From positions 1 to 54,774 of IMG/VR virus record IMGVR_UViG_3300027896_002339: 54,774 nucleotides of DNA; one strand, written 5' to 3'. Shown here piece by piece: positions 11,845 to 54,711 of this stretch (positions are counted from its first letter, which is position 1; the number at the start of each line of letters is the position of its first letter). The notes below the pieces were generated by a model. The model did no database searches, was not told the DNA's origin, and saw only the letters and a program-made list of their open reading frames with translations. The position numbers were made by a program, and so were the translations under genes. This DNA comes from a virus. Its lineage: Duplodnaviria; Caudoviricetes.

Positions 11845-13002
11845 CTATTTTCCTACATTCAATAACTTCTTAGCAACTTCAAGAAGTTGATTATTCCCTT
11901 TAATCAATTCATAATATACCAAAGCTGTTTTAGCTTTTGCAGCTTCAGATACTATAATAGTTCGAAGACCTAAAGGAATTATTTCTTTGCAAGCAACTGT
12001 TAGATTATCAAAGAGTTTCTTAACTACTTTAATTTCACTAACAATCTCTTCATCCTTCATATCATAATTCTTCATCTTCCATGTCTTCATAAACTCAGCT
12101 ATGATTGCACTCATAAGCGAATATGCATCGATCTTAGACATTGCAGTAAGATCAGGTAGTGGTGTGTTTTGAATTAAAAATTCTTCCGCATTCCACTGAC
12201 TAAATAATCTTACATATTCCACAAATTTTTGTGTGTATTCCTGTCCAACATGACCATGTCCTAATATAAGATAATCAGAAGTAGAAAGTCTGCCTTTTGA
12301 TTCCAATTGATCAAGAGAATCTGAATAATGTGTCCATGATCTAGGAGAAGCAAATGGAGCTGATTCTAATGGAGGACTTTGTAATAGGTCTGGATACAAT
12401 CCCAGAAAAGACATCACATCTTGTCTCACACCATAAGTAATTGCGAAGTCATTAACCCATGATTCAACAGTTGTAACAACATCCACAAAAAGTAATCTGT
12501 TAACGATAGGACTCATTATTGGTTGAGCGCCAGCAGAATCTGTACTTTTATTACCCGCCAAAACAATTACATAATTATCTGATAGTTTATGATTATGAAT
12601 TGATTTATAAGTTAGTAATTGAAAAAGATAATTTTGTATACTTTTACAACAAAGATGTGCATCATCAAGAAATAATATAGTATTAGGACCATTGCCTTTT
12701 ATCTTCAAATGATCCTCTGAAAATAATTCGGGTTTAGACCAGTAATATTCTTTTTGATCAGAAGAAGCAGGAATAGGAAGTCCAGAAATTTGCTCAATCA
12801 ACATAGTTGAAAGATATTTTATATTTAATGATATATCTAATTTCTTAGCAACCTGTTCCATCAAAGAACTTTTTCCAACTCCTGGACTTCCTGATAGATA
12901 TATGATTGAGGTGGGACGATTCATTGGCGAGTTTTTTAGTTGTAGATTAATATTTGATTCTATATATTTAACTGCTTCTGATAGATTAACTGTAGTTGAC
13001 AT
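11845..13002 (-). CDS. MoxR-like AAA+ ATPase
   Basis: Walker A GSPGVGKS, Walker B ILFLDD, AGN, NRL and SPRSW. Confidence 0.85.
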   Translation of the reverse strand: MSTTVNLSEAVKYIESNINLQLKNSPMNRPTSIIYLSGSPGVGKSSLMEQVAKKLDISLNIKYLSTMLIEQISGLPIPASSDQKEYYWSKPELFSEDHLKIKGNGPNTILFLDDAHLCCKSIQNYLFQLLTYKSIHNHKLSDNYVIVLAGNKSTDSAGAQPIMSPIVNRLLFVDVVTTVESWVNDFAITYGVRQDVMSFLGLYPDLLQSPPLESAPFASPRSWTHYSDSLDQLESKGRLSTSDYLILGHGHVGQEYTQKFVEYVRLFSQWNAEEFLIQNTPLPDLTAMSKIDAYSLMSAIIAEFMKTWKMKNYDMKDEEIVSEIKVVKKLFDNLTVACKEIIPLGLRTIIVSEAAKAKTALVYYELIKGNNQLLEVAKKLLNVGK

Positions 13003-13020: not shown

Positions 13021-13980
13021 TTAATTTCTTCCTTGGTCTAGTAACACTAAAAAATCTTTAAATCTTTGAATTTCTTTTTCTGGATTTTTGAGAAATTCTT
13101 GTTCTGAAATATAATACACCATGCATGAAAGATGATAAGATATTATTAATTGTCTATTTTGATCATTATTAGATAGTTCACCGTTTATTTTAAAATGATG
13201 TGGTTCAAGAACTTCAATTGCAAGATTATATTTTTTATCATACAAATCCATAAACTTCCCACATTCATTAACCATACTTCGATCATTTCTTAGAAATGAC
13301 TCGCTACTAAAAATTTCTAGTTGGTCTCCAATAGGAATTTCATTATTTCCAATTCTTGGACACATTCGTTTACCATTTAACTTGTGTTTTTCAATATATT
13401 CAATGGCAGATATACTTTGTTTCTTCTTTGTTTCTAACGTTCGTTTTTTCCCTATATTTGCGTTTGCTATTTTTTTAATTGTTTCTTGTGTGTGTTTTCT
13501 TTCTTTAAATTTTTTAATTGTTTCTTGTGTATGTTGTTTACCATAAAATGAATTTAGTTTTCCACTACATTTCTCTTTCATTTTATTTTTGGTTTTTTCT
13601 GTATGTTTTCTTCCTTTAAAATTATTAGCTAATTTTGCTTTATGTTCCTTAGAAAGTTTTCTTCCTGTTAGAGATTTAGACATTTTCTCTATTGATACAG
13701 GAGATGATTTAAAACCTTTTGGTGTTCCGCCTCTATGATTTTCTTTCATTTTTTGTTTGGATTCTTCAGAATGTTTTCTTTCTGACATTCCTTTGCAATT
13801 TTGGGATAATTTTTGTTTCCATTTTTCAGAAAATTTTTTTCCTTTGTTGGGAGCGTGATGTCCTTTAATCCATAAATTTCCAATCTTCTTTACTTTTTCA
13901 CCACAACCACACAAACATAAAGGTAATTCTTTCTTAACCCCAATTACTAAATTATTCTCTATTGATATTCTCGCTTTCAT
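13021..13980 (-). CDS. homing-endonuclease-like protein type A (CxCGCG + NUMOD3-like repeats + Vsr/EDxHD-like nuclease)
   Basis: LCLCGCG; KHTEETKxK-type repeats; D...YNLAIEVLEPHH; conserved QEFLKNP.KEIQRFKDFL end. Confidence 0.8.
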   Translation of the reverse strand: MKARISIENNLVIGVKKELPLCLCGCGEKVKKIGNLWIKGHHAPNKGKKFSEKWKQKLSQNCKGMSERKHSEESKQKMKENHRGGTPKGFKSSPVSIEKMSKSLTGRKLSKEHKAKLANNFKGRKHTEKTKNKMKEKCSGKLNSFYGKQHTQETIKKFKERKHTQETIKKIANANIGKKRTLETKKKQSISAIEYIEKHKLNGKRMCPRIGNNEIPIGDQLEIFSSESFLRNDRSMVNECGKFMDLYDKKYNLAIEVLEPHHFKINGELSNNDQNRQLIISYHLSCMVYYISEQEFLKNPEKEIQRFKDFLVLLDQGRN

Positions 13981-14116
13981 TATATTTCTCTTTTAATAAT
14001 TTAACACCTTCGTCAATTAACTGAAATAAAAATTTATCAGTTGTTGCTGCAAGATGTTTTAATTCATCATACGCATTTTTAGAAATCAAAACTTGTCTTT
14101 TATCATCCATATTCAT
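13952..14116 (-). CDS. small ribbon-helix-helix-like regulator
   Basis: Beta-strand QVLIS then helices (AYDELKHLAA / LFQLIDEGVKLLKEKY); ATG 14116 with AGGAG SD. Confidence 0.7.
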   Translation of the reverse strand: MNMDDKRQVLISKNAYDELKHLAATTDKFLFQLIDEGVKLLKEKYNESENINRE

Positions 14117-14175
14117 TACTCCTAATAATTGATAAATCAATAAATAGATTTATAATTTATTCATATTATAAAATG

Positions 14176-15011: not shown

Positions 15012-15279
15012 GATCGAATTCCTTTATTTTTGATTCATCAATTCCAATATATTCTAAAAATTGGGCCATATCAAAACCATCCATATCAGTACTGAATTTT
15101 ATTACTTTATCAGTATATTCAATATTCCAACCAGTACAATCATTCACATACATCCCATAATGAGGTGCCTGCGATCTCCAATTATCAATTTGATATTCCT
15201 GAGTTTTGGTTATCCCTTCTCTAAGAATCATGAAACTGGAAGAGCTACTATTACTTACTAACGAATGTCTAGTTTTCAT
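14998..15279 (-). CDS. MKxRxxxVSNSSSSSF-family phage protein
   Basis: N-terminus MKTRHSLVSNSSSSSF. Confidence 0.75.
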   Translation of the reverse strand: MKTRHSLVSNSSSSSFMILREGITKTQEYQIDNWRSQAPHYGMYVNDCTGWNIEYTDKVIKFSTDMDGFDMAQFLEYIGIDESKIKEFDHANL

Positions 15280-16649
15280 ATTTGTATTATCTTCCCTACA
15301 ACCTGATCAACTGTATAATCAAGAGTCTTCAAATAGATTCTTGGTATCCTTGACGGGAGTAGTTTTTGAGCCTCTGGAATATTAGAACACATATCAGTTA
15401 ACGATAAGACAAGACTAATGAATGTGTTATGAGTCTTTTCAAAGTCTAATACCTTTTGAAAAGCATCACTATGACTTGTACCGCCATGATGTCTCCTAAC
15501 ACACAACTCTTCTATATCCTTGCTCGTTATCTTTTCCTCATATAATTTTGACCACTTGACAGTGACATCGTGTTTAATTACTAATATATTTTTATAGTAG
15601 CTGTCTGCTTGCTGAGCTAACTCTACTGCCTTAGCAATATCTTCTTCTGTCATACTACCAGATTCATCTACTAATAATGCTAGTGTTCCATATACCTCTT
15701 CCTCAGTTACATTAGGAAGATAAGGTAATGATGGTTGAGCTAACCAAATAAGTCTTGGTCTACTGTAAGAGATATCACCTTTCTTTTGTAACTCAACGAG
15801 TATGCTGTCTCGAAGAATAACATCCCAAGGAACCTTTGCAGTAAACAAACGCTTAATAAATTTTTCAAAATATTTGTTTTCAAATCCTCTTGATAATATT
15901 CTAGATTCAAACATTGTTTTAGCTAAAGAAGAATCAAATTTATTATCTGATTCTCCCTCTTGACTTTCACTTTCCTGTTTAGGAAACTCGACAAATGTTT
16001 TTTTGTAAGTTTGATCATTTATTTGTAGTTCTGTTTTAGTAATCTTTATTTGAGAATCTTCCGGTACACCATCATTCGAAATACCGACCTCATCAAGGAA
16101 ATCCCGATAGGATTTTTGAGTTTCTTCTTTCTTAAAGTTGCCATTTTTTTGCAGAAGTTCATAGATTTCTTCCTCTATAAGATTACTGAATGATTCATTG
16201 AATAATACTTTATCCTTATATTTATCTAATTGAAAAATCACCAGATTTGCTTGATCGTCAAATTTTTCTTTTTCAAGATTGTAAAGTAGCAAGTTCAGAA
16301 AAAAATCTGTGCTATACTGCCACAATGTTTGATCTTTACCTTCACCTCTCTCTTTGTGCATGAAGATATTATGACCCACCTCATGTAAGAGTGTGAAAGT
16401 TAATACATAATGAATATTTGCAGTACACTCTTTAAAAAATGGATCATCTGGATTTACGTATATATATTTGAAATCCGTACATGCGGGAGCAGAAAGAGGA
16501 ACTTGATCAGTTAGAATAATTGGATAATTCATCGAACACAACCCGAATGGAAGATATACGTTTGAACGAAGTAATGATTCTATAATTTTTTCTATAACAT
16601 TATAATAATTAAAAAATTTATGATAGTCTTTCGTTTTAGTAACATCCAC
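15276..16649 (-). CDS. DUF2201-type metallopeptidase-VWA domain protein (MoxR partner)
   Basis: ACTD, LLHEVGH, W..IL, MIDAS DESGSM, GGT and LTD. Confidence 0.85.
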   Translation of the reverse strand: MDVTKTKDYHKFFNYYNVIEKIIESLLRSNVYLPFGLCSMNYPIILTDQVPLSAPACTDFKYIYVNPDDPFFKECTANIHYVLTFTLLHEVGHNIFMHKERGEGKDQTLWQYSTDFFLNLLLYNLEKEKFDDQANLVIFQLDKYKDKVLFNESFSNLIEEEIYELLQKNGNFKKEETQKSYRDFLDEVGISNDGVPEDSQIKITKTELQINDQTYKKTFVEFPKQESESQEGESDNKFDSSLAKTMFESRILSRGFENKYFEKFIKRLFTAKVPWDVILRDSILVELQKKGDISYSRPRLIWLAQPSLPYLPNVTEEEVYGTLALLVDESGSMTEEDIAKAVELAQQADSYYKNILVIKHDVTVKWSKLYEEKITSKDIEELCVRRHHGGTSHSDAFQKVLDFEKTHNTFISLVLSLTDMCSNIPEAQKLLPSRIPRIYLKTLDYTVDQVVGKIIQI

Positions 16650-16650
16650 T

Positions 16651-17403
16651 TTAGTTAACTCCTTGATCTAGTAATAATAAAAAGTCTTTAAATCTCTGAA
16701 TTTCTTTATCTGGATTCTTAAGAAATTCTTGTTCTGATATGTAATAAATCATACATCCAAGTTTCCATGATATGATTAATTCTCTATTTTGATCATAATC
16801 TATTAATTCACCAATTGGTTTAAAATGATGATTTTCTAGTATATCAATACCAAGATTATATTTTGAAATATAACCATCAAGAAATCTACCAGAAATATTC
16901 GCTAATTTTCTATCATTTCTTAATACTTTTAAATTGATTTCTTTTTCTATATGATTAAGAATTAAAATTTCATTACTACCAACTCTTGGACACATTGGTT
17001 TACCATCAAATTTATGAACTTCAATATATTTAATAGCAGAAATACTTTGTTTAACTCTTGTGTTTTCAGATCTATTTTTTGCACTGATAGACATTCTTAA
17101 TTTCGTTTTTTCAGAATGATATCTTCCAATTGATTTTTCTCGGATTAATTGTTTTCTTTCTTCTGAATATTTTTTTCCTTTATTTCTTTTAGAATTTTCT
17201 AAACAAAATTCTTCTGTTCTTTTCATTCCTTTATTTCGTTTAGAAATTTTCAACTTGTGTTCTTCCGATAGTTGTTTACCTTTAGTGTAATTCTTTCCAA
17301 TTATATGATGTCCGTGTAGATATTTATTTTCTATATGTTTGACTTCTTTACCACACCCGCATGAACATAAAGGAAGTTTATTTTGTATTATTTTCGTTTT
17401 CAT
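16651..17403 (-). CDS. homing-endonuclease-like protein type A
   Basis: LCSCGCG; NUMOD3-like repeats; MCPRVG.NEI; conserved C-terminus shared with 13021 and 21233. Confidence 0.8.
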   Translation of the reverse strand: MKTKIIQNKLPLCSCGCGKEVKHIENKYLHGHHIIGKNYTKGKQLSEEHKLKISKRNKGMKRTEEFCLENSKRNKGKKYSEERKQLIREKSIGRYHSEKTKLRMSISAKNRSENTRVKQSISAIKYIEVHKFDGKPMCPRVGSNEILILNHIEKEINLKVLRNDRKLANISGRFLDGYISKYNLGIDILENHHFKPIGELIDYDQNRELIISWKLGCMIYYISEQEFLKNPDKEIQRFKDFLLLLDQGVN

Positions 17404-17566
17404 ATATTTGATAAAATGATTTTAAACTAATTGGTATTTCTTTATTGTGTTTTTGTACTATATAAAGAATTGCTTCATTAGTTATATGTTTTATTGATTT
17501 TTCTGATTCTGCTGCTATAATTCTTAAAAGTTTATGAACGTCATCATCTATTATAATACTCTTCAT
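17378..17566 (-). CDS. small ribbon-helix-helix-like regulator
   Basis: MKSIIIDDDVHKLLRIIAA resembles TIQIDKELHKRLRIIAA of the other copies. Confidence 0.7.
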   Translation of the reverse strand: MKSIIIDDDVHKLLRIIAAESEKSIKHITNEAILYIVQKHNKEIPISLKSFYQIYENENNTK

Positions 17567-17602
17567 TATTGATCCTTAATTATATAAAGTTAATATTTTA
17601 AT

Positions 17603-17683
17603 TTATTCATATGTATCATCTTCATCTTTCAATGAATAGTATTCAAAGAACTTACTATACTCTTTTGTGTTTTTTTCTATCAT
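17603..17683 (-). pseudogene. orphaned duplicate 5' end of the VWA gene (26 codons)
   Basis: MIEKNTKEYSKFFEYYSL aligns with MDVTKTKDYHKFFNYYNV (start of 15276..16649); AGGA SD; its stop lies inside the cassette promoter motif. Confidence 0.7.
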
Positions 17684-17696
17684 AATAATTCCTACG

Positions 17697-17732
17697 AAAA
17701 AAAGAGGGAGGTAAATACCCCCTCCCCCTCTT
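17697..17732 (-). terminator. intrinsic terminator
   Basis: G-rich/C-rich stem (GAGGGGGAGGGGGTA/TACCTCCCTC) followed by T7 on the minus strand. Confidence 0.7.
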
Positions 17733-17752
17733 CCACCAACAACATCTTCGGT

Positions 17753-19102
17753 TTAAGAAGATGCTGCTGCTGAATGTTCACTTATCATCTGAATCACTTT
17801 TCCTGACAGAGCGATCATCTTATTAAGATTAAGATCGAGACTCTTCTTATCAGGTGTCCAGTCAGAGATGATACCTCTTTCGTTCTCGCAGGTTGATCCT
17901 TCACCGATGATCTTACCCTGTTCTCCAGTAATGTTTCCTGTCTCATCCTTCGCTGCAATAGTTCCAGTACCATTGCTCTTGATCCACCGAATCCCATCAA
18001 CCACCTGATTGAAAGAATTCTTATTGAACCGCACCTTCTGAAGGGTGTTCAAAGGAATATTCGGAATCTTGTAGTTCTTCTGCATCCAGTTCTCAACCAC
18101 TTCCGTAAGTGTGTTGAGATTTCCTTTTCTCAATCCGATATAATTGGGAATAAACATCTCTGCTTCTTTCCCAGTCTTTTTCGGATCAATAAAGATAACA
18201 CTGATCACCGGGAAATCCCTTCCCCAAACTACATTTCCGGTGCTAACTGTGAAGGTAACTTTACCATCCTTCTCATTAACATTCCTGGTTGACGTAACAA
18301 AACCGATCCTCGCAAGGAGTTTTGTTTTTGCTTCCTGAGTGAAGATCTCTGCAAACCTGGAATCTTTTTCTTTCAGAATAACCAAGTCTACATTCTTCAT
18401 CTGATTGGCAACTTTCTGAATCGAACCACCCATCAGCCTCTCGAACAGCTTGACGTGCTGGATGGCATTAGCCAACTTCTTTTCTGCCACCACGATGTCC
18501 TGCTCCAGTTTTTCAAACTGGGAATCAAAGACCTTTCCTTCTTCCTCTGACTCGGGACGACCGCCATCGACCATCGCCGTAAGATCTTTCTTCAAACCAT
18601 TTATCGAATTGGTGAAGGTTATGTCAGGATTCAAAAAGTCCATCATCATCTTCTCTCTGACTGCCCGATCATTCTTGGTCCAGCTCGGAAGACCAAAAAG
18701 ATTTGACTTCAGCTGCCTCATAACATTCAGACATTCTTCCACTGAATGATCGTGGGGTTCATGCTGTGCCTTTTCCAGCTTGGCGATGAACTTGAATACG
18801 ATCTGCTCAAGAATGATATCGAAATCTTTCTCGACAGTTCCATCGATCATGAAGTCCGAATCCTGAAAGAATTCGAAATGTGTCCTCTTGTTGAACTTCA
18901 ACGGAGCTCGACCATGATACTCCTTCTTCTGAATCGGTTTCTGTATTGCTTGATTCATCTTCTTTTTCTCCATTACCTTTATTTCCTTCTTGATCTCTGT
19001 TGCAACAGAAACGTTTGAAGCATTTGTTTCGGAACTCTGACCTTCCAGTTGTACCACACCACCAGCGACCATCAGACTTTCGAACGGATTATTTTTGGAC
19101 AT
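17753..19102 (-). CDS. hypothetical protein, probably highly expressed early gene
   Basis: 449 aa; visibly higher GC and C-ending codons; own promoter motif, structured leader and terminator. Confidence 0.8.
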   Translation of the reverse strand: MSKNNPFESLMVAGGVVQLEGQSSETNASNVSVATEIKKEIKVMEKKKMNQAIQKPIQKKEYHGRAPLKFNKRTHFEFFQDSDFMIDGTVEKDFDIILEQIVFKFIAKLEKAQHEPHDHSVEECLNVMRQLKSNLFGLPSWTKNDRAVREKMMMDFLNPDITFTNSINGLKKDLTAMVDGGRPESEEEGKVFDSQFEKLEQDIVVAEKKLANAIQHVKLFERLMGGSIQKVANQMKNVDLVILKEKDSRFAEIFTQEAKTKLLARIGFVTSTRNVNEKDGKVTFTVSTGNVVWGRDFPVISVIFIDPKKTGKEAEMFIPNYIGLRKGNLNTLTEVVENWMQKNYKIPNIPLNTLQKVRFNKNSFNQVVDGIRWIKSNGTGTIAAKDETGNITGEQGKIIGEGSTCENERGIISDWTPDKKSLDLNLNKMIALSGKVIQMISEHSAAASS

Positions 19103-19221
19103 TACTATGTCTCCAGCTATTATTGGGTTTATTTATTATATAGTAAGTGTCACCCACCACAATTACTATGTAAGACGTCACATAATTTACAGCATTAAAT
19201 TACGCAACTCTTAATATCATA

Positions 19222-20979: not shown

Positions 20980-21241
20980 GCTAATCACCTCCTACTAGTT
21001 ATTAATATATATAGTGTCGATCTGATAAATAGAATGAATAAATTATATAAACTATATAAAACAATAGGAGATATTATGAATGTTACTACTATACAGATTG
21101 ATAAAGAATTGCATAAAAGACTTCGCATAATTGCTGCGCATGCTGATAAGAAATTATATGAGATAATAGAAGATGCTGCTACTACGTTAGAAGAGAAATA
21201 TCATATTCCTCAAAATACTTCAGAGGTTGATCATGAATAAG
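20917..21241 (+). repeat. ~325-bp inverted repeat, copy 1 (partner 54450-54774)
   Basis: Ungapped alignment with about 7 mismatches counted by eye; may extend further left because the partner is cut by the window edge. Confidence 0.92.
21076..21240 (+). CDS. small ribbon-helix-helix-like regulator
   Basis: MNVTTIQIDKELHKRLRIIAAHADKKLYEIIEDA; AGGAG SD. Confidence 0.75.
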   Translation: MNVTTIQIDKELHKRLRIIAAHADKKLYEIIEDAATTLEEKYHIPQNTSEVDHE

Positions 21242-22018
21242 TTGTGTGAATGTGGTTGTGGTGAGGAAGTAACAAGCGAAAAAAATAGATTTTTAAAAGG
21301 ACATAATAAAGGAAAATTAGGAAAAAAAGTAACACCAGAAACAAAAAATAGGATGTCAAAAAGTCAGATAGGAAAGATTCATACAAAAGAACATAACTTA
21401 AAAGTTTCAGTTGGATTAAAAGGTAAAAAAAGAAAACCTCTAACTTCTGATCATATTAAGAAAATTTCTACAGGACACAAAGGTCAAATTCCATGGAATA
21501 GGGGCTCTATAGGAAAACAAAAAGGTCCTAATAAAGGGAGAATCTTTTCAGATTGTATTAGATATAGAATGTCTTGTGGACATAAAGGAAAAATCCATTT
21601 AGCAGAAACAAAAATAAAAATGAGTATTTCCGCAATTAATTATATAGAAAAAACTCGATTTAAAAATAGAGGGATGTGTCCCGGAATAGGAAAAAATGAA
21701 ATTCATATTCTTGATCAAATAGAGAAAGCGATTGGATTAGAAATAGATCGAAATAGTAGAAAACTTTCAAGCGTCACTGGAAAATTTAATGATGGATTCA
21801 TACATCGATATAATTTAGGAATAGATGTGTTAGAAAAACACCACTTCAAATTTGATGGTTCTTTATCTGACTATGATTTTAATAGAGAATCTATTATTGC
21901 ATATAAACTAGGTTGTATGATTTACTATATCCCTGAACAAGAATTTCTAAAGAATCCAGATAAAGAGATTCAGCGCTTTAAAGATTTTTTACTACTGCTT
22001 GATGAAGGAAAAAACTAA
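21233..22018 (+). CDS. homing-endonuclease-like protein type A
   Basis: MNKLCECGCG; PWNRG/NUMOD3-like repeats; conserved nuclease C-terminus. Confidence 0.8.
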   Translation: MNKLCECGCGEEVTSEKNRFLKGHNKGKLGKKVTPETKNRMSKSQIGKIHTKEHNLKVSVGLKGKKRKPLTSDHIKKISTGHKGQIPWNRGSIGKQKGPNKGRIFSDCIRYRMSCGHKGKIHLAETKIKMSISAINYIEKTRFKNRGMCPGIGKNEIHILDQIEKAIGLEIDRNSRKLSSVTGKFNDGFIHRYNLGIDVLEKHHFKFDGSLSDYDFNRESIIAYKLGCMIYYIPEQEFLKNPDKEIQRFKDFLLLLDEGKN

Positions 22019-23536: not shown

Positions 23537-24472
23537 ATGAATAAGTTGTGTGAGTGTGGATGTGGAGAAGAAACAAAAATTGATAGAGATTCTAAGAAGT
23601 ATCGAAGATTTTGTAAAGGTCATCATAATAGGTGTGAATCTGTAAAACAAAAGAAAAGAAATGTGTGGTTAGAACATTATGGAACTGATAATCCCGCAAA
23701 ATCTATTGTGATCAAAGAAAAAGCAAAAGAAACTTCTAGAATGAATTGCGGCGAAGATTCGTGGATGCAAACCAAAGATGGTATTAAAAAATTTAATGAT
23801 TCGATGATGAAAGAATATGGATCAAAATGGGCGATGCAATCAGAAAAAATTAGAAGAAATCATTCTGCATCATTATTAGAAAAATATGGTGTAGAATATG
23901 CAATGCAATCAGAAAAAGTTCAAACTAAATATAAACATACTTGTAATAAAAATAATAGTTGTGACTGGCCAATGCAATCAGAGGATGTTAGAAAAAAATC
24001 AAAAAATTCATTAATAGAAAAATATGGTGTTGATAATTATTCTAAAACCTCCGAATTCAGACAACTAGCAAGGCGACTATTGAAAGAATCAATATTAAAA
24101 AACTATCCCGGTGAGACAGGGTGGTGCCCTAGAAAAGGTAATTACGAAAAAGAAGTATTTGATGAACTTCAAAAACATTGTTCATATACAATTCTGGAAG
24201 ATCAAGAATTTATTGAATTATATCCAGATCGTTATATTAATGAGATTAATTTAATCATTGAATTATATGAACCATGGCACAATAGAGATTGTTATGCTAA
24301 ACGTGATTCAGTTAGACAAAAAGAATTAGAAGATTATCTGGGCTGCAAGTTTTTTATAATTTGGTTGAAAGATTGGAAAGAAAATAAAGATATAATAATA
24401 TCAGAATTTAAAGAGGTTATCAATGGCTGCACCACAAAGTGTATCAGCACAACAACAGCAACGATTAGTTGA
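23537..24472 (+). CDS. homing-endonuclease-like protein type B (CxCGCG + YGVD-xxx-Q repeats + Vsr-like nuclease)
   Basis: MNKLCECGCG; repeated KYGVE/DxxMQS; PDRYI...IIELYEPWH; GCKFFIIWL. Confidence 0.8.
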   Translation: MNKLCECGCGEETKIDRDSKKYRRFCKGHHNRCESVKQKKRNVWLEHYGTDNPAKSIVIKEKAKETSRMNCGEDSWMQTKDGIKKFNDSMMKEYGSKWAMQSEKIRRNHSASLLEKYGVEYAMQSEKVQTKYKHTCNKNNSCDWPMQSEDVRKKSKNSLIEKYGVDNYSKTSEFRQLARRLLKESILKNYPGETGWCPRKGNYEKEVFDELQKHCSYTILEDQEFIELYPDRYINEINLIIELYEPWHNRDCYAKRDSVRQKELEDYLGCKFFIIWLKDWKENKDIIISEFKEVINGCTTKCISTTTATIS

Positions 24473-26186
24473 ATATTTCAAGTGTAAAAAAGATCCGATC
24501 TATTTTATGGAGAATTATGTTCTTCTTGCGTTGACTGGCGGTGATACAAAGGTTAAATTATACGATAGACAGAAAGATTTTGTTGCGCAGGTGATGAAAG
24601 AACATTACGTCATCGTATTAAAATCCCGTCAGACTGGTGTATCTACTATAACTCAAATGTTATGTGCCTGGGTTTGTACTTTTTATAAGAATGTTGTTAT
24701 TGGATGTGTGAGCAAATCTGGTCCAGAAAGTACAGATTTTTGTCGAAAAGTTTTATCTATTCTTGATGGTTTACCTGATTGGTTGAAACCCGCATTTAGT
24801 AAAAGAGCTGAACAAAGTTTTATCACAGATACTGGATGTCAGTTCTATGCAGGGCAGGTCGATGAAAGCAACCCAGAAGGTTTATTCAGAGGAAAAGCTC
24901 TCGGATTTTTAATTATAGATGAGGGTGCATTCGTGCCCAAGATTGACGAAGCGTATACTGGCGTCGCACCAACACTATTTAAATCACAAACATTAGCGAA
25001 GCAACTTGGTGTACCATTTGGAACTATCATCATCTCGACTCCTAATAAGACTGTAGGTAAGGGTAAATGGTATTATCAGACATGGACTAAAGCAGTTAAT
25101 AATGATTCTATCTTTACCCCATTCAAATTGCATTGGAAAATGATTAAAGAGTTTGCTGATGATCCAACATGGTATAAAACACAATGTGCTCTACTTGATA
25201 ATATTCATTGGAAGGTCGCACAGGAATTGGATATGCAATTTGTTGCAAGTAGCAACTCATTCCTTAAAGCAGAGACAATAGAAATATTAAACACCTGTAC
25301 GATCGATCCTATTTACAAGATGCAGTTACATAAACACGAGTTGTGGCAATTCGAACAGCCTAATAGATCTAAGTTCTATATAATTGGCATTGATACTGCA
25401 TCTGCATCTGGTACGGACTCCAGTACAATTGTGGTTGTTGACTATGAAACTTTTGAACAGGTAGCAGAGTTTAGAGGTAAATTGAGAGTTGATGATTTCT
25501 GTAATATTATATATCTTGTGAATAAGATGTATCCTAACAATTTAATTGTGCCAGAGGCTAATAGTTATGGAAATCAGGTCTGCGAGTTCTTAACAAAAAG
25601 TGATACTTGGTATAATATATACATTTCTAAAGTTAAGAGTACTACTATAGCAACAGTCCCAAACAAGAACCAAAAATACAAATATGGTCTAACTACAGGT
25701 GCCCAAAACAGACCATTAATGATCGATTCTCTTTATACTTATATTACAGAAAATCCCAGTTGTGTTAAATCAGAAAGACTAGCTCTTGAATTAATTGGAT
25801 TAATAGATAATGGTAATGGTAAAATTATGGCAGATGAAGGTGAACATGACGACTTAGCTTTAGCTTTATCATTCTGTGCCTATGTTAGAACCTATGATCC
25901 ACCACTTGCTATTTCAAGAGATATGAATAATCAAAGTATAATGGATGAGATGAGAGATGTAGCGAATTGGAATGGTGACCGGCGATCGAATGTATCAGCA
26001 GAATTTTCTGAGATTAAAGAATTTGATAGTGATGATAAATTTGAACGAATAGAACATTCAAACAAATTGCTAAACAAATATCTTAAAACAAATCTTAGAA
26101 AGATAGTAGAGAATAACAATGGCGGCTCTACAATAGACATCCTTAAACTTCTAGATTTCAGAAACAAAAAAAATCAGAAGATGTAA
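24423..26186 (+). CDS. terL: terminase large subunit
   Basis: KSRQTGVST Walker A, LIIDEGAF Walker B, ISTPN, RNase H IGIDTA and HDDLALA. Confidence 0.95.
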   Translation: MAAPQSVSAQQQQRLVEYFKCKKDPIYFMENYVLLALTGGDTKVKLYDRQKDFVAQVMKEHYVIVLKSRQTGVSTITQMLCAWVCTFYKNVVIGCVSKSGPESTDFCRKVLSILDGLPDWLKPAFSKRAEQSFITDTGCQFYAGQVDESNPEGLFRGKALGFLIIDEGAFVPKIDEAYTGVAPTLFKSQTLAKQLGVPFGTIIISTPNKTVGKGKWYYQTWTKAVNNDSIFTPFKLHWKMIKEFADDPTWYKTQCALLDNIHWKVAQELDMQFVASSNSFLKAETIEILNTCTIDPIYKMQLHKHELWQFEQPNRSKFYIIGIDTASASGTDSSTIVVVDYETFEQVAEFRGKLRVDDFCNIIYLVNKMYPNNLIVPEANSYGNQVCEFLTKSDTWYNIYISKVKSTTIATVPNKNQKYKYGLTTGAQNRPLMIDSLYTYITENPSCVKSERLALELIGLIDNGNGKIMADEGEHDDLALALSFCAYVRTYDPPLAISRDMNNQSIMDEMRDVANWNGDRRSNVSAEFSEIKEFDSDDKFERIEHSNKLLNKYLKTNLRKIVENNNGGSTIDILKLLDFRNKKNQKM

Positions 26187-27123
26187 TAATAGTTTTGAAA
26201 TTATTTATTACTTGTTCTTTATTTTCTTTCCACTCATCTAACCAAATTATAAAAAATTTACAACCCAAATGATTTTCAAGTTCTTTCTGTCTGATAGGAT
26301 CATGCTTAACATAACATGATCGTTTGTGCCATGGTTCATACAACTCGAGAATTATATTTAATTCTTTGATATATCGATCGGGGTGTAATTCAATAAATTC
26401 TTGTTCTTCTAAAATTTTATATGAACAATGTTTTTGAAGTTCGTCAAACACTTCTTTTTCATAATCACCTTTTCGAGGACACCATTTAGCTTTGCTAGGA
26501 TAATTTTTCAGTATTGATTCTTTCAATAATCGCCTTGCTAGTTGTCTGAATTCTGAAGTTTTAGAATAATTATCAACACCATATTTTTTTATCAAAGTTT
26601 GTTTAATTTCGTTTTGGATTTCTTTTGATTGTAATGGCCAGTCAGTACCGAAATTTTTTCTGGCTGTTGTTTTATATTTTTCTTGAATTTGTTTTGATTG
26701 AAATACATTATCAACACCATATAATTCTTGACATGTTTGAATAGATTTAATTCTAACATCCTCTGATTGCATCGGCCAATTCACACCTCTAATTTTTAAA
26801 TTTGTATCAATCTTTTTATCTTTGATATCTTTTTGTTGCTGCTCAGTGTGCTGATTCCATGTGCGCTTTGATTTTTCTTTAATTTCAATTGATTGTTGTG
26901 CCCATTCAACATTATGATTTTTTAACATTCCTTTTTTAAATTTATCCTTCCCTTCTTCAGATTGTAATATATGATCACAATTATATTTTTTTCTATTTGT
27001 TTTTATTCTTTTTTGCATAGATTCTAATGTTTGTTTTTCCCCATTTCTATGATGATTATAAATAAATCTGTTAGTATTATTGATTACTTCTTTGCCGCAT
27101 CCGCATTCACATAACTTATTCAT
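26158..27123 (-). CDS. homing-endonuclease-like protein type B
   Basis: Same architecture and near-identical C-terminus to 23537 and 53250. Confidence 0.8.
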   Translation of the reverse strand: MNKLCECGCGKEVINNTNRFIYNHHRNGEKQTLESMQKRIKTNRKKYNCDHILQSEEGKDKFKKGMLKNHNVEWAQQSIEIKEKSKRTWNQHTEQQQKDIKDKKIDTNLKIRGVNWPMQSEDVRIKSIQTCQELYGVDNVFQSKQIQEKYKTTARKNFGTDWPLQSKEIQNEIKQTLIKKYGVDNYSKTSEFRQLARRLLKESILKNYPSKAKWCPRKGDYEKEVFDELQKHCSYKILEEQEFIELHPDRYIKELNIILELYEPWHKRSCYVKHDPIRQKELENHLGCKFFIIWLDEWKENKEQVINNFKTIITSSDFFCF

Positions 27124-27283
27124 TATTGACCTCGCTAGTATTTTGGGGTATTCTATATTTTTCTTCTAGGATCATAGCAGATTCTTCAATTAACTCAAAT
27201 AGTTTCTTATCAGTATATGCAGAAATTATTCTTAATCGCTTATGTAATAATTTATCTATCTGAATAGTAGTAACGTCGTTCAT
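27116..27283 (-). CDS. small ribbon-helix-helix-like regulator (not in ORF track)
   Basis: MNDVTTIQIDKLLHKRLRIISAYTDKKLFELIEESAMILEEKYRIPQNTSEVNNE; AAGGAG SD. Confidence 0.75.
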   Translation of the reverse strand: MNDVTTIQIDKLLHKRLRIISAYTDKKLFELIEESAMILEEKYRIPQNTSEVNNE

Positions 27284-27406
27284 ATAATCTCCTTATAGAA
27301 TTATGAATACAATGGTTTATATAATTTATTCATTCTGTTTATCAGATCATTTTTACTTAAATAAAAATAAATAAGTTTGAATGATGAATAAATTAAAAGG
27401 TTTTTT

Positions 27407-28345
27407 ATGAATTTGATACAAGAGCAATTCCTAAATTTTCAATTGAAATCTGCACTTAGGCGTGTGGGGTATTCAAATACTACGGTTGGTGAAATTGGTG
27501 AAGATAGCATTTATACAAACGAAAAAATAAAAAAAACCTTCATAGAATCAATATCAGATCAAGATACTTTTAAACCTATCATGGGTGATATAATTAGATT
27601 GATTGAAAGCGATCGAATTGTCCCTGTTCATGTTGAGGTTGGATTAGTAAAAAGAGTCATTCTCTTTTTTTCTAAAAACAAAAGAAAATTTGCGCAATCT
27701 AATTTTGCTATGGCATTTTTTGATAACGAAACAAGAAAGATTTTCGTATTAGTTGAAAACATTACAAACTTTAATTATTGGATGAAGCAAGAAAGTTTGT
27801 CATTGGTATTGCTGCACGAGTTACAACACATGACATCAACATTGTTTCCTAATTCTTTTATGAATCTTCATGGAAAGTATATTTCAAGATACTTTAAGTA
27901 TTTTATAAACTTATATTTTAAGGCTCCTATAACAGATAAAGATTCATTTAGAATAGCAACGTGGTTACATTACAAAACAGAAACAACAAAAGGTAGAGCA
28001 ACGTTGACCAGCTCAACATCAAAAGAATATTTTCAATTGCTGTGGTCAATATTAGATTCCCATTTTGAATCAAAAGATAAATTGAAGAAATCTGTAATAG
28101 ATTATTTTAATGTGATAACCGTGTATATGCAGCAACCAGAGCTATACTCTCATCTTGTTCACAGTAAAGATCCGAAGATGTTTTATATGTTCAAGTGTTT
28201 ACGAGAGTCTTATAAATCATTGAATATTTTAAAACTGGATTCTCTTTGTATACAAGAAGTTCTATATCCGGGAGAAATAATTTGTATTGAGAGTGAATTT
28301 AATACGCAACCAAGACATTTTCAATTGATATCTAAAATAAAGTGA
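27407..28345 (+). CDS. hypothetical protein with zincin HExxH motif
   Basis: LLHELQH; late motif at 27386. Confidence 0.6.
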   Translation: MNLIQEQFLNFQLKSALRRVGYSNTTVGEIGEDSIYTNEKIKKTFIESISDQDTFKPIMGDIIRLIESDRIVPVHVEVGLVKRVILFFSKNKRKFAQSNFAMAFFDNETRKIFVLVENITNFNYWMKQESLSLVLLHELQHMTSTLFPNSFMNLHGKYISRYFKYFINLYFKAPITDKDSFRIATWLHYKTETTKGRATLTSSTSKEYFQLLWSILDSHFESKDKLKKSVIDYFNVITVYMQQPELYSHLVHSKDPKMFYMFKCLRESYKSLNILKLDSLCIQEVLYPGEIICIESEFNTQPRHFQLISKIK

Positions 28346-37892: not shown

Positions 37893-38708
37893 TTAAACTT
37901 TTTCTTTTAATAGATCCACAAAATTCGAGAACCGAACAATTTCTTTTTCTGAATTTTTTATAAAATCACATTCTTTAATTCTATAAATCATACATGCTAA
38001 ACTAGACGATAGTATTAATTCTCGTTCTGTATCACATAATCTCAATTCATTTTTTGTATCATAGTGATGTGGTTCATCTATTTCAATTATAAGATTTAAT
38101 TCTTTAATATAACCATCTGGGAATTTACCAATAGTATATCCTATATCAAAGCTATTTCTAATTATTTTCTTGTCTATATTGTCTTCTAGTATATTAAGAA
38201 TATAATCTTCGTTTCTGCCTCTTCTAGGAATTGCAACATATTTTGCAGCGGCAATACTTAATTTTTGTCTTGTTTTTAATGAATGATGTTTACCTCTAGT
38301 AGATAAACCTATTTTGATTCTTGTTTCTAATGATGGTTTAATTCCTATATGAGAATTACTCATATTAAACTTTGCCGTATCTGAATGCTTTTGTCCTGTC
38401 ATACCAACATGATTATGATATAATGATAATTTCTTTTTATGCTCATCAGAAAGAGGTTTTCCTTTTTTAGCTTCAGAAAGAATTTCTTTAATTTTTTTAT
38501 CTCTAAACTGATGCCCTTTTATAAATCTATTTGGTATTTTTGAATCTCTTCCAATTTTTACAAATAACCCACAACCACATTCGCATAATTTTGATTCATA
38601 TACTATAGGTGTAGATGTTTCTATTTTTCGTTTGTTGTGTCCTGAAATAAATTTATTCTTTTCACTAGTTACTTCTTTTCCGCACCCACATTCACATAAC
38701 TTATTCAT
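37893..38708 (-). CDS. homing-endonuclease-like protein type A (two CxCGCG motifs, no RHH partner)
   Basis: MNKLCECGCG twice; NUMOD3-like repeats; FPDGYIKELNLIIEIDEPHH. Confidence 0.8.
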   Translation of the reverse strand: MNKLCECGCGKEVTSEKNKFISGHNKRKIETSTPIVYESKLCECGCGLFVKIGRDSKIPNRFIKGHQFRDKKIKEILSEAKKGKPLSDEHKKKLSLYHNHVGMTGQKHSDTAKFNMSNSHIGIKPSLETRIKIGLSTRGKHHSLKTRQKLSIAAAKYVAIPRRGRNEDYILNILEDNIDKKIIRNSFDIGYTIGKFPDGYIKELNLIIEIDEPHHYDTKNELRLCDTERELILSSSLACMIYRIKECDFIKNSEKEIVRFSNFVDLLKEKV

Positions 38709-44269: not shown

Positions 44270-44421
44270 TGTCGTTCTCCTATTTATTGTTTCTAAATGT
44301 TCTGGTTAAACTTAAACCGAACTTTTTAATTTATTCATGTAGAATTTAAGAAAAATTTCGAACTACAACTTTTAATTAAAGAATAAATAAACATTACGCT
44401 AATAAAAATTGAGAGGGATTA

Positions 44422-53249: not shown

Positions 53250-54458
53250 TTAATTTTTAATTTGTTCTGATAACTGAGATAGGAGATTTTTAAATTCTGA
53301 TATCACTTTTTCTTTATTATTCTTCCATTCATCTAACCAAATTATAAAAAACTTACATCCTAGATGATCTTCTAATTCTTTTTGCCTAACAGGATCATGT
53401 TTCCTAGCCCAGGCGTATTTGTGCCACGGTTCATATAATTCAATAATTATATTCAATTCTTTGATATAACGATCCGGATGCAATTCAATAAATGTTTGAT
53501 CTTCTAGAATTGTATATGAACAGTGTTTTTGAAGTTCATCAAATATTTCTTTTTCATAATTTCCTTTTCTTGGACACCATTTAGTTTCTCCGGGATAATT
53601 TTTTAAAATTGATTCTTTCAATAATCGTCGCGCTAGTTGTCTAAATTCTGGAGTTTTTGAATAGTTATCAACACCATATCGATTCATGCATGTTTGATTT
53701 CTTTTTAAAATCACAAGCGGATCTTGCATTGACCACGAAACCCCTCTTCGATCTATATTGGTTTGTTGATGTTTTTCTTTAACTACAAGATCTTGCATTA
53801 CATTATCACAATTTCGTATAGTTTTGTTTGTTTTTATGATTTTATTTTTTATTATTTTCAATTCTTCTTGTGTTTTATTTTCCCACGTCTTTTTGATTTT
53901 ATCAAGAATTATTTTAGAGCAAGATGGTGCTGGACCCCCATATCGTTTTTCATTTGTTGCCGTCATTTTTTCTCGAACTTCTTTATTTTGAGAGGGCCAG
54001 TCTACTCCAAGAGATTTTTGGAATCCAGTCATTTGTCGTTTTTGAACTTCTGAATTTTTAGTTGGATTGTCTTGACCCCAATTATCTTGAGATGTATCTA
54101 TGGATTTTTTCTTAGCCGCAGGAGATTGACTAGGAAATTCAAAACCAGTTTTTTCTAATAATGTTCTTTTCCATTTTTCTACCATTTCTGGAGAGTTTGT
54201 TTTTCCTTTTCTAGAATGTCCATGAATAAAGATATTACCGGATTTTACTATTAAACCACACCCGCATTTGCATAAAATAGGTATCTCAAAATTTTTTTTA
54301 TTTTTTATTTCTAATGCTCTTTTTTGATCAAATTGTTTTCTAACTTCTTTGCCTTCTATAGTTCTACTAAAGTGACCCTGTCTAAATCTGCTGTATTGTT
54401 TAGTATCTCTGTTGATTTTCACTTCTTTTCCGCAGCCGCACTCACACAGCTTATTCAT
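53250..54458 (-). CDS. homing-endonuclease-like protein type B (two CxCGCG motifs)
   Basis: MNKLCECGCG and LCKCGCG; YGVD-type repeats; conserved type-B nuclease end. Confidence 0.8.
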   Translation of the reverse strand: MNKLCECGCGKEVKINRDTKQYSRFRQGHFSRTIEGKEVRKQFDQKRALEIKNKKNFEIPILCKCGCGLIVKSGNIFIHGHSRKGKTNSPEMVEKWKRTLLEKTGFEFPSQSPAAKKKSIDTSQDNWGQDNPTKNSEVQKRQMTGFQKSLGVDWPSQNKEVREKMTATNEKRYGGPAPSCSKIILDKIKKTWENKTQEELKIIKNKIIKTNKTIRNCDNVMQDLVVKEKHQQTNIDRRGVSWSMQDPLVILKRNQTCMNRYGVDNYSKTPEFRQLARRLLKESILKNYPGETKWCPRKGNYEKEIFDELQKHCSYTILEDQTFIELHPDRYIKELNIIIELYEPWHKYAWARKHDPVRQKELEDHLGCKFFIIWLDEWKNNKEKVISEFKNLLSQLSEQIKN

Positions 54459-54615
54459 GTTCAACCTCTGAAGTATTTTGAGGAATATGATATTTCTCTT
54501 CTAACGTAGTAGCAGCATCTTCTATTATCTCATATAATTTCTTATCAGCATGCGCAGCAATTATACGAAGTCTTTTATGCAATTCTTTATCAATCTGTAT
54601 AGTAGTAACACTCAT
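54451..54615 (-). CDS. small ribbon-helix-helix-like regulator
   Basis: Nearly identical to 21076..21240. Confidence 0.75.
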   Translation of the reverse strand: MSVTTIQIDKELHKRLRIIAAHADKKLYEIIEDAATTLEEKYHIPQNTSEVEHE

Positions 54616-54711
54616 AGTATCTCCTATTGTTTTATATAGTTTATATAATTTATTCATTCTATTTACTAGATCGACACTATATATATTAATAACTAGTAGG
54701 AGGTGATTAGC

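Follow-up and report, generated by a model that had tools for sequence, protein, structure and literature searches.

The IMG/VR record IMGVR_UViG_3300027896_002339, from a large uncultured freshwater phage, has a CheckV completeness of 17% and was analysed over 54,774 nt (this whole stretch of 54.8 kb is called the window below). The subject of this work is a cassette in that window, made up of a small RHH (ribbon-helix-helix) gene and a free-standing nuclease gene, which lies directly ahead of a VWA gene and has an orphaned copy of a VWA gene start on its other side. Read along the minus strand, on which all of the features at the locus lie, the order is a 449-aa gene, a hairpin, a 26-codon open reading frame (ORF), the 12-base motif ATGAATAAATTA, the RHH gene, the nuclease gene and the 457-aa VWA gene.

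The orphan ORF (17683..17603), which reads MIEKNTKEYSKFFEYYSLKDEDDTYE, has an AGGA 7 nt before its ATG, and its TAA (17605-17603) falls within the ATGAATAAATTA motif (17610-17599) that forms the left end of the cassette. The RHH gene (17378..17566; 62 aa) is the first gene of the cassette, and its end overlaps the start of the nuclease gene (16651..17403; 250 aa) by 26 nt. The nuclease stop codon (16653-16651) is followed by one base and then by the GTG start of the VWA gene (16649..15276), whose ribosome-binding site, AAGGAG (16659..16664), lies 9 nt before the GTG and is formed by the nuclease codons Q-G-V. The coordinates, translations and sequence features given in an earlier note on this DNA, i.e., the ORFs, the Shine-Dalgarno sites and the stop codon inside the motif, all hold, as does its placement of the new ribosome-binding site within the last codons of the nuclease. 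The VWA protein is predicted to have a DUF2201_N metallopeptidase-like domain and, under the Pfam cut-off, a VWA-like DUF2201 domain. Its PHROG family is labelled "HNH endonuclease", for which Pfam gives no support.

The orphan reading frame is a relic of a VWA gene start

The earlier note had taken the orphan ORF for a detached N-terminus of the VWA gene because of a segment of 18 aa that resembles the present start. The two starts have TK[DE]Y.KFF.YY in common, in register, and after the Met 8 of 17 positions are identical; a single one of 100,000 shuffles equals this value. When the first 21 residues of the orphan were compared in register with the N-termini of 34 VWA homologs from the protein collection, identities out of 20 came to 15 for P0009, 14 for P0004, 13 for each of P0006, P0007 and P0014, and 12 for P0020. 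Among 1,783 start-opened 21-codon frames taken from all six frames of the window, just the orphan and the true VWA start exceed 7 matches to the homolog N-termini (15 each), and the remaining 1,781 control frames reach at most 7. Shuffling the orphan 20,000 times gave a maximum of 11 matches. When 2,004 six-frame peptides were scored with a profile built from the first 30 alignment columns of the homologs, the VWA gene itself came first (E 1.3e-7) and the orphan frame second (0.038), ahead of a third-ranked peptide at 0.63.

The likeness to VWA proteins stops after codon 21 of the orphan ORF, so that the stretch from 17683 to 17621, hereafter the stub, corresponds to VWA codons 1-21 of the allele type beginning MIEK. 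It ends 5 codons ahead of the conserved LRS..LPFGL block. At the level of sequence, these comparisons confirm the orphan ORF as a genuine relic of the 5' end of a DUF2201/VWA gene, which the nuclease cassette separates from the working copy; the relic is probably translated into a harmless 26-residue peptide.

Ten bases, GATGATACAT (17611..17620), lie between the end of the stub and the end of the cassette and make up a non-homologous left junction. The 20 nt preceding the motif are identical at just 4-7 of 20 positions to those of 9 other cassettes. In a test of 9 other cassettes for a stub, none (0/9) has one. Within the window the N-terminal profile found a single stub, with no second one and no stub array. 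Two further candidates were rejected. A frame before the second cassette of the window (14240-14196; MIEVIESNKFEIIH) has the look of an ATPase gene start, but 80 of 400 random segments reach its score and the comparison with 27 ATPase N-termini was unconvincing. A 12-codon mini-ORF before the cassette of contig L102 was considered as a VWA stub remnant, and 1,779 of 2,000 shuffles score equally.

Logan contigs of run X1, which may be the source sample and would thus be a re-assembly and not independent evidence, agree with the window over the junction: one spans 16660-17649 without a difference and thereby joins the cassette, across the junction, to 39 nt of the stub, and others covering 17620-19200 and 15925-16689 are likewise without differences. 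These contigs break inside the stub, with an overlap at 17620-17649 that represents a branch in the assembly graph. A co-occurring variant that has the last 30 bases of the stub, perhaps a cassette-free allele, may be present in X1. Over 17612-17745, the summed depth of the X1 contigs is 17.1, vs 12.8 in the adjoining bins. Runs X2 and X3, from another study, contain pieces of the nuclease gene and of the VWA 5' end that are identical or about 90% similar, with no cover over the stub.

The present VWA gene is a mosaic

In sliding-window identities, residues 1-130 of the present VWA protein are nearest to P0002 and P0003, and the remainder is nearest to P0009 and P0004. The 5' module, codons 1 to about 130 (16260..16649), is 72-82% identical to P0002/P0003 vs 42-77% to the other homologs, and over residues 21-140 alone the identity is 70-82% to P0002 vs 45-77% to the others. 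The rest of the gene (15276..16259) belongs to a different, recipient lineage by the same measure, with P0004 nearest over residues 141-457 (72%). Trees, from which P0008 was left out, agree with this division: residues 1-130 place the window with P0002 and P0003 in one clade (SH-aLRT 99), and residues 250-457 place the window as sister to P0004 (90). Over residues 250-457 an AU test rejected a three-way clade of P0001, P0002 and P0003 (p 0.00015), a clade that had been picked only after the sliding identities were inspected. P0004, nearest to residues 141-457, is also the second-best match to the stub (14/20), so that stub and gene body would come from one lineage and the 5' third from another.

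Judged by identities and trees, the present start is thus no short recoded copy; its first ~130 codons are those of a natural allele lineage of its own, which begins MD[IV]TKTKDYHKF. A similar arrangement is seen in P0003: as far as about residue 160 it has 83-90% identity to P0002, and beyond that point it is 100% identical to the MIEK-type P0007. By these values, a third backbone has recently received this 5' module in P0003, and one 5' module is therefore met on three different backbones. The first ~35 residues of P0008 resemble no other homolog, in contrast to its well-aligning remainder, and its start looks frameshifted or miscalled.

Related loci with and without the cassette

Of the 16 relatives' loci examined, none (0/16) has a cassette between terminator and VWA start, and the start lies just 15-20 nt beyond the terminator. 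Two of these, L022 and L095, start MIEKQTKEY... and MIEKNTKEY..., which is the allele type of the stub. Besides the window, the cassette was found at the same locus in L011 and L012 only, two contigs of one phage type, whose RHH protein is 74% and whose nuclease is about 47-50% identical to those of the window. Among relatives, this very locus thus occurs both with and without the cassette.

The VWA genes of L011 and L012 start MDITKTKDYHKF, which is the type of the window's present start. Where the window has its GTG, L011 has an ATG at the homologous position, preceded by AAGGA in the same place as the window's AAGGAG. Neither contig has a stub; the intergenic terminator leads straight into the left end of the cassette, at the place of the old ATG. 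L011 was also compared with the cassette-free L022, a close relative. Upstream, their intergenic DNA is nearly identical up to the ATG of L022, at which point L011 has four bases and then the motif. Downstream, the first 120 residues of their VWA proteins are just 59% identical, vs 80-83% for the flanking genes. The upstream genes of the window and L011 are just 34-39% identical where alignable. Linkage of the 5' module to the cassette was inspected in two genomic contexts, the window and L011/L012, and in both the foreign module starts exactly at the cassette.

A second case of a 5' module that travels with a cassette may be provided by an AAA ATPase gene, which is preceded by a cassette in the window (gene at 11845-13002 (-), behind the second cassette), in L102 (1949-3121) and in L104 (2887-4044); the three ATPases are far more alike in their first ~140 codons than later. 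The VWA genes of two relatives look different. In L112 (1592-3902) a 594-aa ORF splits the gene between about codons 131 and 163, and the predicted product of this ORF suggests a reverse transcriptase/maturase with an HNH-like end and hence a group II intron. In L100 (1-1809) just the C-terminal VWA-like part exists as an ORF (P0031, 267 aa), and the preceding 861 nt give no match to the N-terminal part, such that this VWA gene may be split or otherwise interrupted.

The nuclease and the other parts of the cassette

In the nuclease, an N-terminal Cys/His cluster and a NUMOD3 motif are combined with a C-terminal domain of Vsr-like (EDxHD) type. NUMOD3 scores 23.7 bits against a Pfam cut-off of 20.4 in this protein and 75.3 bits in the paralog of the second cassette; Pfam found no LAGLIDADG or GIY-YIG domain, and a search of the PDB with the nuclease sequence gave no meaningful match. 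An AlphaFold2 model (pLDDT 85-95 over residues ~140-250) was compared with known structures by Foldseek, and the best matches were the two chains of the I-Bth0305I catalytic domain, 3r3p_B and 3r3p_A, with a probability of 1.00, modest E-values of 1.8e-3 and 2.6e-3, and target TM values of 0.71 and 0.73. Vsr (1vsr) and AbaSI/PvuRts1I came next. The modelled C-terminal domain thus has a predicted Vsr-like fold, nearest to I-Bth0305I and Vsr. Five residues (E145, D176, E190, H193 and D204) do not vary across the 13 paralogs and homologs that were aligned and form a candidate catalytic set, the pattern of which fits that of the EDxHD family.

The window contains seven paralogous nuclease genes, five of them with a small RHH gene upstream, which is an unusually high density of homing-endonuclease genes. 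The six further paralogs lie at 13021-14164 (-), 21034-22018 (+), 23537-24472 (+), 26158-27333 (-), 37893-38708 (-) and 53250-54657 (-); four of these have both an upstream RHH gene and ATGAATAAATTA, and those at 23537-24472 and 37893-38708 are without an RHH gene. The cassettes at 21034 and 54657 are alike for more than 45 nt upstream of the motif (20985-21045 (+) and 54646-54700 (-)) and encode nearly identical RHH proteins (MNKLYKLYKTIGD...), which looks like a recent duplication within the genome.

The RHH protein of the VWA cassette matches Antitox_RHH with an E-value of 6.4e-4, which is under the Pfam cut-off, and its 74% identity to the L011 partner extends across 53 residues. By BLASTP, the RHH proteins of the first and second cassettes have no significant likeness (E 0.39), and a PHROGs search of the nuclease and RHH genes returned nothing informative.

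The 12-base motif ATGAATAAATTA occurs in 7 copies in the window vs 0.12 expected. It stands 25-45 nt before the first cassette gene and, with other contigs included, is exact in 10 of 15 cassettes and has at most 2 mismatches in 14 of 15. Whatever the context, the cassette has this same left end, and the sequence to the left of it is unrelated from one context to another. The motif also occurs at 44327-44338 (-) and at 27384-27395 (+), the latter 11 nt ahead of the ATG of a non-nuclease gene (27407..28345). Since it precedes this non-nuclease gene too, the motif most likely serves this phage group as a promoter element, and the copies at 27384-27395 and 44338 suggest a shared phage promoter rather than a mobility end. 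A sigma-70-type scan of 16500-17900, with 9 sites found vs 9.1 expected, is neutral on the motif as a promoter.

Upstream of the stub, the 449-aa gene (19102..17753) has a G+C content of 42% vs 27-34% around it and matches no Pfam or PHROG family. It is followed by the terminator-like hairpin with a T-run (17705..17722), the element that directly precedes the VWA start in cassette-free relatives; a regional scan found 2 terminator-like sites vs 0.2 expected. In an Rfam scan of the whole window no family reached its gathering score, and hence no group I or group II intron was detected. The nuclease ORF sits between the stub and a complete VWA ORF, outside any detected intron. The GenBank phage collection held one distant VWA relative only (22% identity) and no DNA relative.

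Proposed origin of the locus and competing explanations

We propose that the locus arose by homing with co-conversion, in which the exchange was homologous inside the VWA gene and non-homologous upstream of it, and the donor 5' module arrived together with the cassette; to this reading we assign a probability of roughly 0.6. During a co-infection, the nuclease would have cut a cassette-free, MIEK-type VWA allele in its 5' region, and a cassette-bearing phage would have served as the template for mending the break. On the gene side, this would have proceeded by homology with a crossover near codon 130, so that the 5' module of the donor, presumably cleavage-resistant, was copied along and the gene stayed whole. 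On the upstream side, where phages of the window and L011 types would have had too little homology, the broken end with codons 1-21 would have been joined non-homologously to the left end of the cassette. We infer the cutting itself, where the break fell and that the new allele is resistant. The resistance of the replacement start to nuclease cleavage, already suggested in the earlier note, is plausible by analogy. There is experimental precedent from T4 for one-sided homing with illegitimate joining on the non-homologous side (PMC2988022, citing Parker et al. 1999).

Several observations weigh against this proposal. It does not account for the 10 nt at the junction (17620-17611); the stub is present in this one genome only; the best match to the 5' module is just 77-78% identical in protein, with no close donor; and the choice of clade in the AU test was made after the fact, as said above. 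The nuclease is also no nearer to its counterpart at the VWA site of L011 (50%) than to paralogs at other sites of its own genome (56% and 54%), so that an extra assumption is needed, such as gene conversion between paralogs. Finally, mosaicism is common in the VWA family (e.g., P0009), and recombination unrelated to the nuclease has therefore to be considered.

One different explanation is that stub, cassette and resistant 5' module home together as a self-contained element resembling the WHO elements of yeasts, with the stub serving as a left homology arm that is regenerated at each homing. The architecture resembles that of the WHO model, where recombination takes place at the displaced FBA1 fragment and the two gene ends give discordant trees (PMC7282813). 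Discordant trees are found here as well; that the stub ends 5 codons before the conserved LRS..LPFGL block also agrees with it. However, the stub is not an obligatory part of the cassette. The nearest cassette-bearing relative lacks it and has the intergenic region as its left flank, no second stub-bearing genome was found, none of the 9 other cassettes tested has one, and 63 nt would make a short homology arm. We consider this explanation unlikely.

In its strict form, the proposal of the earlier note amounts to an element with fixed ends that carried about 18-25 recoded codons and inserted at codon 21-25, leaving the downstream gene as the recipient's own. The TK[DE]Y.KFF.YY segment common to the stub and the present start, with its 8 of 17 identities in register, and the sharp left end of the cassette are in keeping with such an insertion. 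What stands of this proposal is that the replacement start is foreign and linked to the cassette. Its description as a short recoded copy, and as a fixed end of the element, finds no support: the donor-type tract is a separate natural allele lineage, its likeness to P0002 continues past codon 25, the tree of residues 1-130 keeps the clade, and the tract extends over ~130 codons in the window and to about residue 160 in P0003. Moreover, L011 has the same module without any insertion inside the gene. Taken strictly, then, the fixed-end model is improbable.

Alternatively, the cassette may be a passenger moron with its own promoter, in which case the stub would stem from illegitimate recombination and the mosaic gene from general homologous exchange, neither of them related to the nuclease. 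The left-end motif does stand before a non-nuclease gene as well (27384-27395), where it acts like a shared promoter, and mosaicism is found elsewhere in the VWA family. Against this, the foreign module accompanies the cassette in both inspected contexts and starts exactly at it, the nuclease has kept all of the invariant catalytic-type residues, and seven paralogs in 54.8 kb argue for active spread, so that we see little likelihood in a history without the nuclease. An assembly chimera of two strains, or a tandem duplication of the gene start that later diverged in situ, is very improbable: the window is a metagenome assembly and the X1 contigs do break in the stub (17620-17649), but in one of them the cassette continues, with no difference, over the 10-nt junction into 39 nt of stub, and divergence in situ would not converge on two separate extant lineages, each at 15 of 20 identities.

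Comparison with known homing systems

Homing without an intron is known from endonucleases that T-even phages encode as free-standing genes, such as SegF, SegG, MobE and Hef, as summarized in PMC2988022. As in these, the nuclease gene lies between genes, the neighbouring gene would be the target, and the nuclease is present or absent among related phages; the co-conversion of flanking donor sequence that underlies marker exclusion likewise yields mosaic neighbours. Unlike the T-even cases as described there, the locus in the window has one non-homologous junction with a relic of the recipient's gene start, and its cassette includes an RHH gene and an upstream motif of its own. In the one-sided homing of T4, too, homology on one side suffices and the other side is joined at non-homologous or microhomology sites, and the same source reports a proposal that one-sided homing is a route to ectopic sites (PMC2988022). 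The T4 case, however, was a laboratory construct with a group I intron, whereas the locus described here would be a natural product that involves a free-standing nuclease and the coding 5' end of a gene.

The layout also has a parallel in the WHO elements that Torulaspora and Lachancea yeasts carry (Coughlan et al. 2020, PMC7282813). In both, a nuclease gene lies beside a host gene, the adjoining end of which is exchanged for a foreign copy, resistant in the WHO model, whenever homing takes place; the former end comes to lie on the far side of the nuclease gene, and the two parts of the gene give contradictory trees. In the window, this gene-end replacement layout is seen in the stub (17683-17621) and the donor-type module (16649-16260), which flank the cassette. 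As presented in that work, the yeast elements differ in that the 3' end of the gene is replaced instead of the 5' end and in that the nuclease is intein-like with a zinc finger instead of Vsr-like/EDxHD. Furthermore, the window has no cluster of successive relics, and one relative is without a fragment.

Mobile endonuclease ORFs of fungal mitochondria similarly produce gene hybrids, e.g., in Allomyces atp6 and in Glomus atp6, atp9, cox2 and nad3 (PMC3630166), and partial C-terminal duplications have been described beside endonuclease ORFs in cob and atp6 (PMC6279837). According to these accounts, the endonuclease ORF arrives with a foreign gene end that clusters with other taxa, and the native end persists as an untranslated or unexpressed duplicate, the counterpart of which in the window would be the stub. 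They concern organelles, C-terminal gene ends and LAGLIDADG or GIY-YIG enzymes, whereas here a phage, an N-terminal end with its own start and an EDxHD-type enzyme are concerned.

The EDxHD family, as characterized in PMC3239194, combines an N-terminal NUMOD region with a C-terminal Vsr-like domain and includes free-standing phage genes of the Hef type; for I-Bth0305I, residues D196, N208, H213 and D222 are named there. The nuclease of the window has the same general layout, a NUMOD-type DNA-binding region followed by a Vsr-like domain, and I-Bth0305I is its best structural match, albeit at 16-17% sequence identity in the structural alignment. I-Bth0305I has NUMOD2 and resides in a group I intron in recA, as opposed to the NUMOD3, the Cys/His cluster, the free-standing position and the RHH partner found here.

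Because the stub is not a constant part of the element, we regard the WHO and mitochondrial systems as analogues in mechanism; the cassette of the window is no member of their nuclease families. A literature search of partial coverage brought up no phage in which an orphaned 5' gene stub is described next to a free-standing nuclease. One could go further and imagine a general phage class of homing elements, free of introns and inteins, that mirrors WHO: a cassette with a resistant 5' end that lands in genes and leaves them unbroken, with a stub that marks the cut and can become the next left arm. The window would then hold one member of the class, and the motif and RHH gene would be its own means of control. 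We put this forward tentatively, as an idea that is more doubtful than probable.

Implications for phage gene evolution

Free-standing homing endonucleases are credited with a part in shaping phage genomes, in that they pull adjacent sequence with them. Natural junctions that reveal how such an endonuclease enters a genome with little flanking homology are rarely visible. At the locus described here, both products of what would be one event survive, namely the orphaned start of the recipient gene and a donor 5' module fused in frame to the body of that gene, and the relatives represent the empty site as well as a clean insertion.

The proposed history makes a testable prediction, i.e., that the nuclease would cut in the 5' region of cassette-free alleles, perhaps near codon 21-45, and it also predicts which allele differences would confer resistance. 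It would link phage homing to the gene-end replacement of yeast WHO elements and fungal mitochondria, and it would explain why the front third of the gene evolves as a separate module in this phage gene family.

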